From an uncultured Clostridiaceae bacterium (GTDB lineage Bacteria; Bacillota; Clostridia; TANB77; CAG-508), in contig CANPTO010000011.1 in assembly GCA_947577025.1 (NCBI GenBank), positions 4,798 through 68,797 of the forward strand: a stretch of DNA of 64,000 bases. Direction: 5' to 3'. The translations under genes were made by a program, and so were the position numbers. Shown here piece after piece: positions 45,350-48,370 of the stretch; within the stretch, counting starts at the first letter, position 1, and each line of letters begins with the position of its first letter. The notes below the pieces were generated by a model. That model did no database searches and was not told the DNA's origin. It saw nothing but the letters and a program-made list of their open reading frames with translations.

Positions 45350-45375
45350 GGGTCGCCCACAGGGGCGACCCCTAC
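45350..45375 (-). repeat. Short GTAGGGG-headed hairpin
   Basis: GGGTCGCCCACAGGGGCGACCCCTAC, between the two tkt subunit genes. Confidence 0.55.
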
Positions 45376-45414
45376 GTCAAATGAATTTTTTGTATTTTAT
45401 TTTTCTATTTGTAT

Positions 45415-45472
45415 GAGAAGGGCACAGTGGTGTCGTTTCCAAAGAAGTATTCCCACAAACGGTGCCCCTACA
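45415..45472 (-). repeat. REP-like element (GTAGGGGC head on the minus strand)
   Basis: GAGAAGGGCACAGTGGTGTCGTTTCCAAAGAAGTATTCCCACAAACGGTGCCCCTACA, abutting the tkt-N stop codon. Confidence 0.7.
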
Positions 45473-46289
45473 ATTCTAATTCATTAATTGCCTTGGTGTA
45501 TTCTTCTTCACTTGGTGCTTTTCCGTGCCATGCTGCGTCATTTTCCATGAATGATATGCCTTTTCCTTTTATTGTTTTTGCTATTATTGCTGTTGGTTTT
45601 CCTTTTGTTAGTTTTGCTGTTTCGAAGGCATTTATTATTTGTTCTATGTTATTTCCATCTATGTTTATAGTATTAAATCCAAATGCTTTAAATTTTCCTT
45701 CTATATTGTCTAACCCTTTTACTTTTTCTATGTTTCCGTCTATTTGTAAGTTGTTGTTATCTACTATTACACATAGGTTATCTAACTTATTTTTGTATGA
45801 TGTCATTGCAGCTTCCCATATTTGACCTTCTTCTATTTCGCCATCTCCTAAAAGACAGTATACTCTATAACCATCATGATTTAGTTTTGAAGTTAGTGCC
45901 ATTCCATTAGCGGCCGACAATCCTTGTCCTAGTGAACCTGTTGTCATGTCTACTCCTGGTATTTTGTTCATATCTGGGTGCCCTTGTAAACTTCCTCTTA
46001 CACTTCTAAATTCTTTTAATTTTTCTTTTTCAAAAAATCCCCTTTCAGAAAGTACTGCATATAGTGCTGGTGAACAGTGCCCCTTTGATAAAACAAATCT
46101 ATCTCTTAGAGGTGCTTTTGGATTTTTCTCATCTATGTTCATTTGATTAAAATATAATACTGTTAATATATCTGCACATGATAGTGAACCTCCTGGATGA
46201 CCTGATTTTGCAGCATATACCTGTTCTATTATGTTTTTTCTTACTTCGTTAGAAATTCTTTCTAATTCTTTTACATCTATAATTTTCAA
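45468..46289 (-). CDS. tkt: Transketolase N-terminal (thiamine diphosphate-binding) subunit
   Basis: AKSGHPGGSLSCADILTVLYF..LSKGHCSPALYAVL..LLGDGEIEEGQIWEA. Confidence 0.9.
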   Translation of the reverse strand: MKIIDVKELERISNEVRKNIIEQVYAAKSGHPGGSLSCADILTVLYFNQMNIDEKNPKAPLRDRFVLSKGHCSPALYAVLSERGFFEKEKLKEFRSVRGSLQGHPDMNKIPGVDMTTGSLGQGLSAANGMALTSKLNHDGYRVYCLLGDGEIEEGQIWEAAMTSYKNKLDNLCVIVDNNNLQIDGNIEKVKGLDNIEGKFKAFGFNTINIDGNNIEQIINAFETAKLTKGKPTAIIAKTIKGKGISFMENDAAWHGKAPSEEEYTKAINELEL

Positions 46290-46386
46290 AATATTATTCT
46301 CCTTTTTTTATTACATTTTATATTATTTTGTTATTATATGCAATATTTTTATTTAATATATTTCTTTATTTTAAATTATGTATTTT

Positions 46387-46970
46387 GTAGGGGCATCGTT
46401 TGTGGGAATACCTATAAGAAATGACACCACTATGCCCTTATTATTTATTATCCTTCCACCAATTTGAAGGATTATTTATTATATATTCATATATTTTATT
46501 ATATTCTTTCTCATTTCTTATGATATGTTCATAATAATTACGTTGCCAATGTATTTTTGTTTTTGATGATGTTCTTCCTTTATAATATCTTACTATATCT
46601 CCTAATTTTATTATATTTTCATTTTTTATTTCTAATATAAAATGTATATGGTCTGGCATTATTTGATAAATTTTTATATTGCAATATTTTAATTTATTAA
46701 TTGTATTTATTAATTCTTTTTCTATTATTTTTCCTTTTTGATTTAATTGTATTTGGCTATTTATTATTTTTCCTAGCAATTGTTGTCTATTTCTTATGCA
46801 TATTGTTATAAAGTAAATGCCTTCTTTTGTATAATCGTATTCTTTCAATCTTATGGATTTTCTTTTATTTTGGTTATACAATATTTATCTCCTTTTTTAG
46901 TTTTATTATATTTTGAGAAGGGCACAGTGGTGTCATTTCTAACAGGTATTCCCACAAACGGTGCCCCTAC
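46387..46970 (-). mobile_element. RAYT gene bracketed by inverted REP-like elements
   Basis: Left: GTAGGGGCATCGTTTGTGGGAATACCTATAAGAAATGACACCACTATGCCCTT (46387-46439). Right, in inverse orientation: GAGAAGGGCACAGTGGTGTCATTTCTAACAGGTATTCCCACAAACGGTGCCCCTAC (46915-46970). Confidence 0.7.
46441..46881 (-). CDS. REP-associated tyrosine transposase (RAYT, IS200-like Y1/HUH, COG1943)
   Basis: KSIRLKEYDYTKEGIYFITICIRNRQQLLG, the HUH motif IMPDHIHFIL, and WQRNYYEHIIRNEKEYNKIYEYIINNPSNW. 146 aa. Confidence 0.8.
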   Translation of the reverse strand: MYNQNKRKSIRLKEYDYTKEGIYFITICIRNRQQLLGKIINSQIQLNQKGKIIEKELINTINKLKYCNIKIYQIMPDHIHFILEIKNENIIKLGDIVRYYKGRTSSKTKIHWQRNYYEHIIRNEKEYNKIYEYIINNPSNWWKDNK

Positions 46971-46979
46971 AGTTGTATT

Positions 46980-47582
46980 TTATTGGTAGTAATTCAATGG
47001 ATTTACATATTCTCCATCTACACGTATTCCTAAATGCAAATGTGCTCCCGTGGTGGCTCCGTTTGTTGGGTTTCCATTACTGTCTTTATATTGATTTCCG
47101 CACTACTCCATATACATTTTTTGGACCAACAAAACCGTATTACTTGTCCTTGTAAAACTTCTTCTCCTGTTTCTACTATGTAAGTTGGTGATACATGGCA
47201 ATATGTTATTTTCATGTTGTCTTTTGATAGTGTTATTGTGTATCCTCCACCACCTAGAAAACCTGTATATGTTATTATTCCATCTACTACTGCTATTAAT
47301 TTACTTCCTTCTGGTGCTCCTATATCTATTCCTTTATGATAGCTTGAGGCTCCTGCAGTTGGCGATACTCTTTTTCCAAAATATGAATTTATTTTTGTGT
47401 ATCCTGGCGAAGGCCATACAAAACCGTGCCCCACTTATTTGCATATTTTCTATGGCATTTAAATCATAATCTATTAAAATTTCTCCTGATATTATTGGAG
47501 TAAAGAAACATGAAATTATTAATATTAAAATTATTAGACTAAAAATTATATAATTAAATGGCTTCAAAAAAGAGCCTAACAT
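46980..47582 (-). CDS. Membrane-anchored M23/LytM peptidase with three frame breaks, all at CGG (47425-47427, 47135-47137, 47098-47100)
   Basis: MLGSFLKPFNYIIFSLIILILIISCFF..NAIENMQISGA | GFVWPSPGYTKINSYFGKRVSPTAGASSYHKGIDIGAPEGSKLIAVVDG..GQVI | GFVGPKNVYGVV | GNQYKDSNGNPTNGATTGAHLHLGIRVDGEYVNPLNYYQ*. The contexts are GCA-C-GGT, ATA-C-GGT and GTG-C-GGA. Confidence 0.75.
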
Positions 47583-47729
47583 AAAGATTCCCTCCTTTAT
47601 TTACGCCCCTATTTGTTTATAATTGTTCATTATTACTTATTCATTCTTCATTAAATTACCCTGGCACAATTATATCATCCCACAATAAAATAATTTACCA
47701 TATTATTCTCTCTTTATTTTCCTAAATAA

Positions 47730-47783
47730 AAAGGCATAGTGGTGTCATTTCTATTAGATATTCCCTCAAACGGTGCCCCCTAC
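47730..47783 (-). repeat. REP-like element copy
   Basis: AAAAGGCATAGTGGTGTCATTTCTATTAGATATTCCCTCAAACGGTGCCCCCTAC. Confidence 0.65.
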
Positions 47784-47854
47784 ATTTGAAATTGTTTTTC
47801 TCATATACTGTTAAAATAACAATATGACATTTCCCATTGTAATATCATTATATT

Positions 47855-48268
47855 TCATTTTTTGAATGCAAAGAATTTACTTATAAAGAAATTTAATATT
47901 ATAACTAACACTGTTATTATGCATTTACTTATCATTTCTGGTATTGGCAATTTAAACATTAAGTAACATCCTACAAATTCTACTACCATTGTAAATGCTC
48001 TTCCAGCTATAAACTTTATAAATTCCTTTGTTTTTTCTTTTATATCTTTTGCTTTTGAATGAAATACTAAGTCTTTATTTGTTATATATGCAAATAGTAC
48101 TGCTATTATAATTGCTATTATATTTGATGTATTTTCATTCAATTTCAAAACTTTTGTCATTAATGCAAATGACCCTATATTTACAGCTGTTGTCAATATT
48201 CCAAATATTGCATAAAATATTATTTCTTTTGTACATACTTTTTTTATTATTTCTTTTATTTTTTCCAT
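47855..48268 (-). CDS. GtrA-family membrane protein
   Basis: 137 aa with four TM helices and the GtrA-like pattern (IFYAIFGILTTAVNIGSF.., AYITNKDLVF). Confidence 0.65.
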   Translation of the reverse strand: MEKIKEIIKKVCTKEIIFYAIFGILTTAVNIGSFALMTKVLKLNENTSNIIAIIIAVLFAYITNKDLVFHSKAKDIKEKTKEFIKFIAGRAFTMVVEFVGCYLMFKLPIPEMISKCIITVLVIILNFFISKFFAFKK

Positions 48269-48315
48269 ATTTTCTCCATTTTCTAATACATATCTATTAT
48301 ATTACGAATAGAACT

Positions 48316-48370
48316 CAAAGGGAACAGTGGTGTTATATATAACAGGTATTTTCTCAAATGATGCCCCTAC
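48316..48370 (-). repeat. Degenerate REP-like element copy
   Basis: CAAAGGGAACAGTGGTGTTATATATAACAGGTATTTTCTCAAATGATGCCCCTAC. Confidence 0.5.

Follow-up and report, generated by a model that had tools for sequence, protein, structure and literature searches.

The stretch of DNA analysed here, a 64,000-nucleotide window with a G+C content of 28% from an uncultured Clostridiaceae bacterium (contig CANPTO010000011.1), contains a small transposase-like gene bracketed by two inverted copies of a short palindromic repeat headed by GTAG, an arrangement that an earlier note on this DNA had read as a system of repetitive extragenic palindromic (REP) elements and their REP-associated tyrosine transposase (RAYT). 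The RAYT gene, at 46441..46881 on the minus strand, has a TTG start with a GGAG ribosome-binding site upstream, and its 146-aa open reading frame (ORF) holds the HuH and tyrosine signatures described in the note (MPDHIHFIL and YIINNPSNW) as well as WQRNYYEHIIRNE. Along the minus strand, the gene order is tRNA-Trp (48451-48525), a GtrA-family gene, a frameshifted M23 peptidase gene, RAYT, tktN and a frameshifted tktC. The tRNA gene adjoins the outermost REP copy, as the note had it, whereas RAYT is not placed between split transketolase genes but upstream of tktN, that is, between the M23 peptidase pseudogene and tktN; the spacer between tktN and tktC contains one REP copy and a short hairpin. 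The locus is very probably a REPtron, in which a single-copy RAYT (another name for which is TnpAREP), a HuH/Y1 single-strand-DNA nuclease-ligase, is joined with a cognate repeat family.

The two arms around RAYT (46386-46439 and 46918-46971) are 54 nt each, inverted, 93% complementary and 478 nt apart. The flanking elements had been described as about 55 nt long and inverted; their orientation holds, while the element itself measures 51 nt from GTAG to GTGCCC. It consists of an unpaired GTAG head, a 9-bp G+C-rich basal stem with one conserved C.T or T.T mismatch, a 3′ arm with a bulged base, a short upper stem, and an apex that begins with a conserved GGAATACC and is hypervariable beyond. Searched with a 24-nt head pattern that allows up to three mismatches, the 64 kb hold exactly five sites, at 45448-45471(-), 46387-46410(+), 46947-46970(-), 47759-47782(-) and 48347-48370(-), with no match in shuffled sequence, and a profile search of the window returns the same five long copies and no others, bearing out the claim of three further copies within 2 kb. 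The copies all lie within 45418-48370, and four of the five point with the genes. Directly upstream of RAYT and forward on its coding strand is the copy at 46918..46970 (minus strand; GTAG at 46970-46967, 51-nt core ending at 46920; nhmmer E = 2.4e-17), while the copy at 46387..46439 (plus strand), just past the RAYT stop, is the only one in the window that runs against the gene direction. The remaining three, all on the minus strand, are found at the 3′ end of tktN (45418..45471), where the TAG within the GTAG head is the tktN stop codon; between the GtrA and M23 genes (47730..47783), with a head carrying one additional G (GTAGGGGGCACC...); and, in degenerate form, between tRNA-Trp and the GtrA gene (48318..48370; profile search E = 1.4e-9).

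Shorter elements accompany the long ones. The hairpin that had been noticed near 45350 is real: at 45343..45375 (minus strand), GTAGGGGTCGCCCCTGTGGGCGACCC forms a short, perfect, GTAG-headed hairpin (-12.5 kcal/mol, z = -4.3) and is a second, shorter REP type. At 51 nt the long element falls outside the 20-40 nt criterion for REPs, within which the short hairpin lies, and fits the 'long canonical' REP class distinguished by Quentin 2018. The heptamer GTAGGGG is seen 11 times in the window against 1.5 expected. The GTAGGGG-headed hairpin that had been pointed out at 28816/28888 is a 73-nt intergenic unit (28816..28888, no strand assigned) with inverted heads at either end and a fold z of about -2; it probably belongs to the same repeat population. 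Three candidates were set aside. The sequence at 19171-19210, offered in the note as a possible hairpin, does not fold (z = +1.0), the GTAGGGG at 18815 is inside an ORF and has no continuation as an element, and that at 25703 likewise does not continue as one.

Judged from its sequence, the product of 46441-46881 would be an intact Y1 HuH enzyme of the RAYT family. By far the best model for the protein is NCBIfam NF047646 (REP_Tyr_transpos; 62.7 bits, E = 3e-17), and its top sequence match in the PDB is Escherichia coli TnpAREP (4ER8). The structure was predicted with AlphaFold2 (predicted local distance difference test score, pLDDT, 87) and compared with the PDB by Foldseek, where 4ER8 is again the best match, with a template-modelling (TM) score of 0.70 and a root-mean-square deviation (rmsd) of 1.9 Å. 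The HuH motif (H78-I-H80) and Y133 align with the HuH and tyrosine of 4ER8, and the segment WQRNYYEHIIR aligns column by column with WQPRFWEHAIR. In the E. coli co-crystal, GTAG is contacted by W94, Q95, E100, H101 and R104, as listed by Quentin 2018, and in the alignment to 4ER8 all five residues are present in RAYT. The ORF is intact with all catalytic and GTAG-contact residues, and H78, H80, Y133, W112 and Q113 are invariant across 26 homologues. The tyrosine motif, YIINNP, has the form Y---NP, which in the same text marks class 2 TnpAY1, with Y---Q marking IS200 (class 1).

How the enzyme and the element relate to one another is seen at homologous loci. The surroundings of nine RAYT homologues (50-67% protein identity) were fetched, and seven of them carry long elements (L110, L199, L111, L112, L196, L197 and L206). 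All seven show the same layout on the coding strand, a forward element, the gene and an inverted element, although the L206 contig breaks off within its downstream copy. Where the protein is 67% and 60% identical (L110, L199), the element is of the window's own type; at 58% (L111) it reads GGGACAC...GTGTCC, at 55% and 54% (L112, L196) GGGCGTTGTCGG...CCGAACTGCGCCC, and at 53% and about 50% (L197, L206) GGGCGTAATCGGTAAG...CTTACCGAATTACGCCC, the L197 type being a nearly perfect 9+7-bp hairpin in which a single A is bulged and which folds at -24.5 to -27.3 kcal/mol under RNA energy parameters. Despite these differences every copy, also of the variant types of L111, L112, L196, L197 and L206, has an unaltered GTAG, a form of the GT[AG]G foot that characterises the GTAG superfamily of REPs; GGAATACC is kept at the start of the apex in every type, and all 13 aligned RAYT-linked elements are exactly 51 nt long. 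Across these 13, five stem pairs are changed on both sides, paired cells amount to 79.8% compared with 34-43% when partner columns are slid, and the observed covariation score is reached by none of 500 shuffles. In 10 of the 13, positions 11 and 45 do not pair (C.T or T.T in copies read by eye), and the base at position 42 is unpaired in the element model. The hairpin is accordingly a predicted structure, resting on covariation and on better-paired variants such as that of L197. Because the elements of homologues differ by compensatory stem changes, enzyme and repeat co-evolve, and such covariation across lineages requires a continuing functional link between them.

The genes next to these loci differ (M23/tktN, truA/engB, dus/rpoB, rplQ, very large ORFs), while L112 and L196 share a truA-RAYT-engB-serS neighbourhood at 69% protein identity. 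These neighbourhoods are in keeping with vertical descent across moderate distances and with relocation or transfer across long ones, a pattern that has been described for RAYTs (Bertels 2017). Two homologues of about 50% identity (L198, L207) carry short GTAG hairpins in frame within the gene, for example GTAGGGGCGCATGATTGCGCCCAG, read as VGAHDCAQ; the window RAYT gene has no REP insertion of this kind. Among 81 distant metagenome homologues (30-47% identity), flanking repeats of at least 12 nt were found in 12, about half of them GTAG-headed, and since the inverted-repeat search used exact seeds and was therefore strict, this number is a lower bound.

Outside the window, the element is widely dispersed. 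When species-representative genomes were scanned for a degenerate form of the head, at least 109 blocks of 8 kb from 19 metagenome-assembled genomes (MAGs) matched. All but one of the blocks listed come from uncultured Clostridia MAGs of about 25-33% G+C, from gut and similar samples; a lone match in a Tissierellia MAG is spurious and has no tail. A profile search of the fetched DNA finds at least 153 matches in 18 MAGs and the window, at least 148 of them outside the window (108 fetched blocks, 18 uncultured Clostridia MAGs), and two MAGs hold at least 33 and at least 31 copies in the sampled blocks. The tail box CACCACTGTGCC was screened after the head search, with a pattern taken from the window's copies, and follows the head at 47-53 nt in 107 of the 134 pattern matches listed. 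As the search pattern selected the head, the invariance of the head is partly an artefact. Inverted pairs within 700 nt number three among the 153 profile matches listed, one being the pair around RAYT. Solo elements are the rule, and the repeat unit is not a doublet of the REPIN or bacterial interspersed mosaic element (BIME) kind.

Other repeats are interwoven with these copies. Among the matches listed, about 18 have further modules nested in the apical region, either short GTAG hairpins, a 38-nt palindromic ATAAATTTGGCA...CCAAATTTAACTGGGCTCGAAG module, or a second module within the 38-nt module, resulting in composite elements of 71, 89 and 122-125 nt (loci L011, L013, L022, L063, L096; L016, L072, L079, L087, L094, L100, L102; L034, L065, L068). 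The related blocks listed also hold 87 more perfect short GTAG-headed hairpins of several subfamilies, so the lineage carries several REP families. Three side observations may be added. L066 (2467-3007) has a small non-RAYT ORF between two REPs, one forward and one inverted, that are 439 nt apart, in the layout seen around RAYT; by eye the ORF looks like that of a DUF2442-type protein, broken by another palindrome. A TTTTGTTCTAGTATAGGAAAA(T)C motif (window 28860-28882; L050 near REP copies) recurs directly past the tails of some GTAG elements in different genomes. Contigs often begin or end in or beside repeats (L110, L203, L206, L210, L217), with a run of N in a short hairpin of L210, and assemblies of this lineage seem to break at the repeats.

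Counted over the pattern matches listed from the window and the related blocks, 107 of 134 copies lie between ORFs, with 14 within them and 13 at the edge of a block. Where the neighbouring genes are co-directional, 80 copies run with them and 12 against, and the majority coding strand, which is the G-rich strand, carries 109 copies as opposed to 13 on the other strand. The base preceding GTAG is T in 95 of 103. With the G-rich strand taken as the lagging-strand template, the GTAG strand should lie on that template, the coding strand being also the G-rich strand; this matches IS608 and ISDra2, which prefer the lagging-strand template. The directions of transcription and replication, the latter read from GC skew, are fully confounded in this set: 10 of the 11 copies listed from blocks of mixed coding strand follow the skew, a number too small to decide between them.

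Comparison of close relatives indicates that the copy set changes over time. The exact RAYT protein occurs on 18 contigs, ten of which were fetched and are 99.4-100% identical to the window in DNA. In all ten of these same-species assemblies, the five long copies and the short hairpin are found at the same places. The same RAYT locus is present in a lineage about 95% identical (L200-L205; protein 99% identical), the contigs of which keep just the two flanking copies. Here, the tktN-tktC spacer has a different palindrome (GGGGACGGTTC...GAACTGTCCCC) and no REP copy (L200, L203, L205), the GtrA-M23 spacer contains a 20-nt internally deleted mini-copy, GTAGAGGCACCACTGTGCCC (L200), and the tRNA-GtrA spacer contains an acetyltransferase gene and no repeat (L200). 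Since the REP-less sister tktN ends one codon earlier than the window tktN, the stop codon of the latter is the TAG in the GTAG head. Copies in identical flanks were also found in several species pairs (among them L049/L090, L025/L105, L018/L062, L008/L089 and L015/L077), and at one orthologous site L049 and L090 have a REP where the window has a different palindrome. Shared between species yet altered at some sites, the copies are long-lived but do turn over. As a side observation, orthologous intergenic sites carry different palindrome families, or a REP, depending on species or strain (window against L049, L090 and L104; window against L205), and for this reason gene 3′ spacers look like shared landing sites.

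The interpretation of the locus as a REPtron draws on TnpAREP as the best match in sequence and fold, the class 2 motif, the GTAG contacts, the solo repeats in relatives and the covariation at seven loci, and in this the earlier note is upheld. Several results weigh against it. In sequence, fold, motifs and architecture the locus is that of a RAYT, with the strict NCBIfam cutoff as the single exception: the protein reaches 62.7 bits where the NF047646 equivalog cutoff is 80, a score that we read as divergence from the sequences behind that model. All five window copies lie within 3 kb of RAYT, with no dispersal beyond that seen within the 64-kb window. Single copies of the window type fold no better than shuffles (z -0.1 to -1.4), and the two most degenerate have z = +1.1 and +1.2; the structure of the element was for this reason drawn from the comparison of element types. 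A tblastn search with RAYT against the 109 REP-bearing blocks listed (19 MAGs) gives no match even at E = 10, so that either the gene was lost from these genomes with the repeats kept, or it lies outside the blocks sampled, or the MAG assemblies break there. Finally, the orientation bias is equally well explained by selection on transcripts.

We infer the mechanism, and with it the binding, cleavage, single-strandedness and current activity of the system, by analogy with E. coli TnpAREP and IS608. RAYT would bind the GTAG strand when it is single-stranded and folded, most likely on the lagging-strand template, and would read the GTAG, the mismatch and bulge, and the loop. It may then cut a nearby dinucleotide via Tyr133, with a metal held by His78 and His80, and rejoin the DNA, which would copy or move solo elements into intergenic positions. 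The RAYT gene would not itself be repeated, instead being inherited with one forward and one inverted element at its sides.

The conservation of the element bears on what the repeats may do for the host. In the copies listed from 18 species-level genomes, the arms (about 25 nt and 14 nt) are nearly unchanged, while conserved genes of these genomes are merely 66-83% identical in DNA, and the arms also stay nearly unchanged across RAYTs diverged to 60-67% protein identity. Apical positions 26-37, in contrast, vary freely among the 62 distinct 51-nt copies listed, and as they have no convincing pairing covariation, the apex is treated as a hypervariable loop. Near-constant arms between species, the persistence of orthologous copies, and variation and insertion of modules confined to the apical 12 nt suggest a possibility to which we would give roughly one chance in four, namely that the element is not just a selfish repeat following a single species but is kept by its hosts throughout the lineage, as a transcript 3′-end or chromosome-organising signal for example, for which RAYT acts as the maintenance or homogenising enzyme and the loop is the preferred landing site for other REP families.

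It is a good deal less likely that the system is fossil or domesticated, with RAYT moving nothing and the host using the elements in transcripts. Roles as terminators and as stabilisers of mRNA 3′ ends are known for proteobacterial REPs. The copies mostly lie downstream of genes and in the same direction (the 80 against 12 above), a T-rich run follows the GTGCCC tail (of the 103 copies among the matches listed, 65 have T at +1 and 73 have it at +2), copy number is not polymorphic in the ten same-species assemblies, and among the blocks listed there are REP-rich MAG blocks without RAYT, just as E. coli strains that lost tnpAREP retain their REPs (Ton-Hoang 2012). Against this, the RAYT ORF is intact with all key residues, and the contigs with the gene show either no difference in it or 99% identity; the enzyme also co-varies with its element from lineage to lineage, lineages about 95% identical do not share the same copy set, and a scan of 44900-48700 for consensus terminators calls none of the elements. 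Host use is also compatible with the REPtron, as REPs can be mobile and host-used together.

It is most improbable that the element has nothing to do with the transposase and adjoins it by coincidence, being instead a structured RNA or a regulatory motif bound by a protein. Such a motif could explain the near-invariant arms in the copies listed from 18 genomes and the strong orientation bias with transcription, but the repeated association of gene and element already contradicts it: eight independent RAYT loci in differing neighbourhoods have the element on both sides, in the same layout and with matching sequence variants. In addition, GTAG, mismatch and bulge are known TnpAREP recognition features, and Rfam, searched at the gathering score and with E ≤ 1 as the limit, has no relevant family for the element.

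An ordinary IS200/IS605 insertion sequence, whose left-end and right-end hairpins would be the flanking repeats, is more remote still and is already contradicted. The protein does score above the cutoff of Pfam Y1_Tnp, 'Transposase IS200 like' (28.1 bits, cutoff 23), and the TnpA structures of IS608 and ISDra2 are significant fold matches, sharing the same HuH/Y1 fold. However, these structures match at a query-normalised TM score (TMq) of only 0.57 and an rmsd of 5.5-7 Å, against 1.9 Å for TnpAREP, and in the profile search against RAYT models that the note had proposed, the IS200 equivalog model gives 28.3 bits (cutoff 55), in comparison to the 62.7 bits for the REP-associated tyrosine transposase. 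The motif is YIINNP rather than the Y[IV]ENQ of IS200, the flanks are inverted copies of one sequence where IS200/IS605 ends are described as one-strand hairpins, and no tnpB adjoins the gene among its neighbours at the locus. The repeat stands alone more than 140 times among the matches listed, while the gene occurs once in the 64-kb window (tblastn). Either an ordinary IS200 TnpA with IS ends or a non-repeated element would, according to the note, have spoken against a REP/RAYT system; the protein is instead closest to TnpAREP, and the element recurs across 18 MAGs. Equally far-fetched are miniature inverted-repeat transposable elements moved by a DDE transposase via terminal inverted repeats, since the elements, though short, non-coding, intergenic and repeated, and though the pair around RAYT resembles such termini, are dispersed as single 51-nt units (with the three close inverted pairs among 153 matches listed), have no associated DDE transposase, and carry the GTAG head typical of REPs.

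The REPtron at this locus can be placed among known systems, of which that of E. coli (TnpAREP with REP/BIME; TnpAY1 subclass 2.2, Bertels Group 2) is the best match in sequence and fold. Both have the conserved HuH and tyrosine core with the GTAG-contacting W, Q, E, H and R, and in both the repeat is an imperfect hairpin, containing a mismatch and a bulge, whose 5′ foot is an unpaired GTAG, with GTAG and a stem irregularity being required for binding by E. coli TnpAREP (Ton-Hoang 2012; Corneloup 2021). They also share a single gene bracketed by its own repeats, solo repeats in intergenic DNA, and repeats that can persist in genomes without the gene (for E. coli, Ton-Hoang 2012). However, the two proteins are 26% identical over the structural alignment, and the window RAYT is shorter (146 aa compared with 165), without the 10-aa insertion between alphaC and beta4 and without the C-terminal tail. 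Its HuH is DHIH/NHIH and its W motif WQ, where E. coli TnpAREP has DHLH and WE. The element, at 51 nt with a hypervariable apex, is longer than the 30-40 nt of an E. coli REP; one element stands on each side of the gene, with close inverted doublets (BIME/REPIN) rare, in contrast to the BIME clusters of E. coli; and the host is a member of the Clostridia with 28% G+C. With IS200/IS605 elements such as IS608 and ISDra2, the system would share recognition of a folded single-stranded hairpin with a 5′ guide tetranucleotide (Corneloup 2021). It is set apart from them by its tyrosine motif and model scores, by the architecture of its ends, by having no tnpB, and by a gene in single copy beside many solo repeats.

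By its motifs, RAYT would be placed near TnpAY1 subclass 2.4, which corresponds to RAYT Group 4 (Bertels 2017) and, according to Quentin 2018, is found mainly in Cyanobacteria and Bacteroidetes. The traits listed there for this subclass are NH[IFV]H, WQ, YIxNNP, no C-terminal tail, long or double-foot REPs and in-gene REP insertions. The similarities are WQ, YIINNP, NHIH in most homologues, no conserved C-terminal tail, long GTAG REPs, and the in-gene short GTAG hairpins of homologues L198 and L207. The 28816-28888 unit, with its GTAGGGG head at either end, may correspond to the 'double foot' REPs. The window protein departs from the same account in having DHIH, a length of 146 aa against a median of 194, and no variable beta3-alphaC insertion.

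What was known before is the anatomy of REPtrons and their probable mechanism; what this locus would add is their extension to uncultured, low-GC gut Clostridia. Work on REP/RAYT systems, known from E. coli and Pseudomonas, has dealt almost exclusively with Proteobacteria and, to a degree, with Cyanobacteria. The earlier note had considered such a system little described in Clostridia, which is partly so: RAYT genes have already been reported in Clostridia, in a passing remark on Group 1, or subclass 2.1, a group without REPs (Bertels 2017; Quentin 2018), whereas a survey of GTAG-REPs lists Proteobacteria, Cyanobacteria, Chloroflexi and the Planctomycetes-Verrucomicrobia-Chlamydiae (PVC) group and no Firmicutes (Di Nocera 2013). 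Subclass 2.4 is reported from 'various phyla', and the available text of Quentin 2018 documents no Clostridia members. Within the library available, our literature search on REP/RAYT in Clostridia or Firmicutes found no Clostridia REP family with a cognate RAYT. A REPtron here would mean that A+T-rich Gram-positive genomes, too, are host to the system with its chemistry on single-stranded DNA. Less ordinary features are the near-constant arms across many species, the fixed 51-nt length, the loop with nested repeats, and the stop codon supplied by a REP. The natural variants, with their compensatory stems, conserved mismatch and conserved loop motif, offer substrates for the study of long-REP recognition by a subclass 2.4-like RAYT. 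The repeats also mark contig ends in metagenomes of this lineage, alter gene ends (one stop codon being supplied), and could act as a cheap lineage marker for gut metagenomes.

Several minor observations concern the rest of the window. The frameshift in tktC (44167-45292, minus strand) splits the gene inside its Transket_pyr domain, with profile positions 3-72 in one ORF and 69-172 in the next, and the M23 peptidase gene (47030-47582, minus strand) is shortened by a frameshift, so that of the 96 profile positions it covers 2-69. Each of the nine independent assemblies spanning the gene yields the truncated M23 ORF (in the sister lineage, L200, about 95% identical, the ORF has 150 aa), and the assemblies covering tktC show no length difference there. 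Being the same in independent assemblies, both are real pseudogenes or recoded genes rather than sequencing errors. A segment of about 300 nt is duplicated at 41979-42298 and 44080-44376 (80-89% identity, 2.1 kb apart), and the second duplicate comprises both about 70 aa added C-terminally to the tktC ORF (...LTKEEIEKL) and the hairpin downstream. Other G+C-rich palindrome families lack the GTAG head, for example those with perfect inverted arms of 37 nt and 30 nt and the GGGGACGGTTCC...GGAACCGTCCCC type; palindromes of this kind without GTAG lie at 7134-7277, 29933-30018, 36224-36544, 39240-39350, 59590-59651 and 62508-62547, with further ones at 7225-7266, 26763-26804 and 57053-57094. At 15320-16226, a unit of about 174-180 nt is repeated in tandem to give five copies with 64-79% identity to the reference copy, and a transfer-messenger RNA (tmRNA) gene at 8787-9146 (minus strand) encodes the tag peptide ADNKELAFAA.

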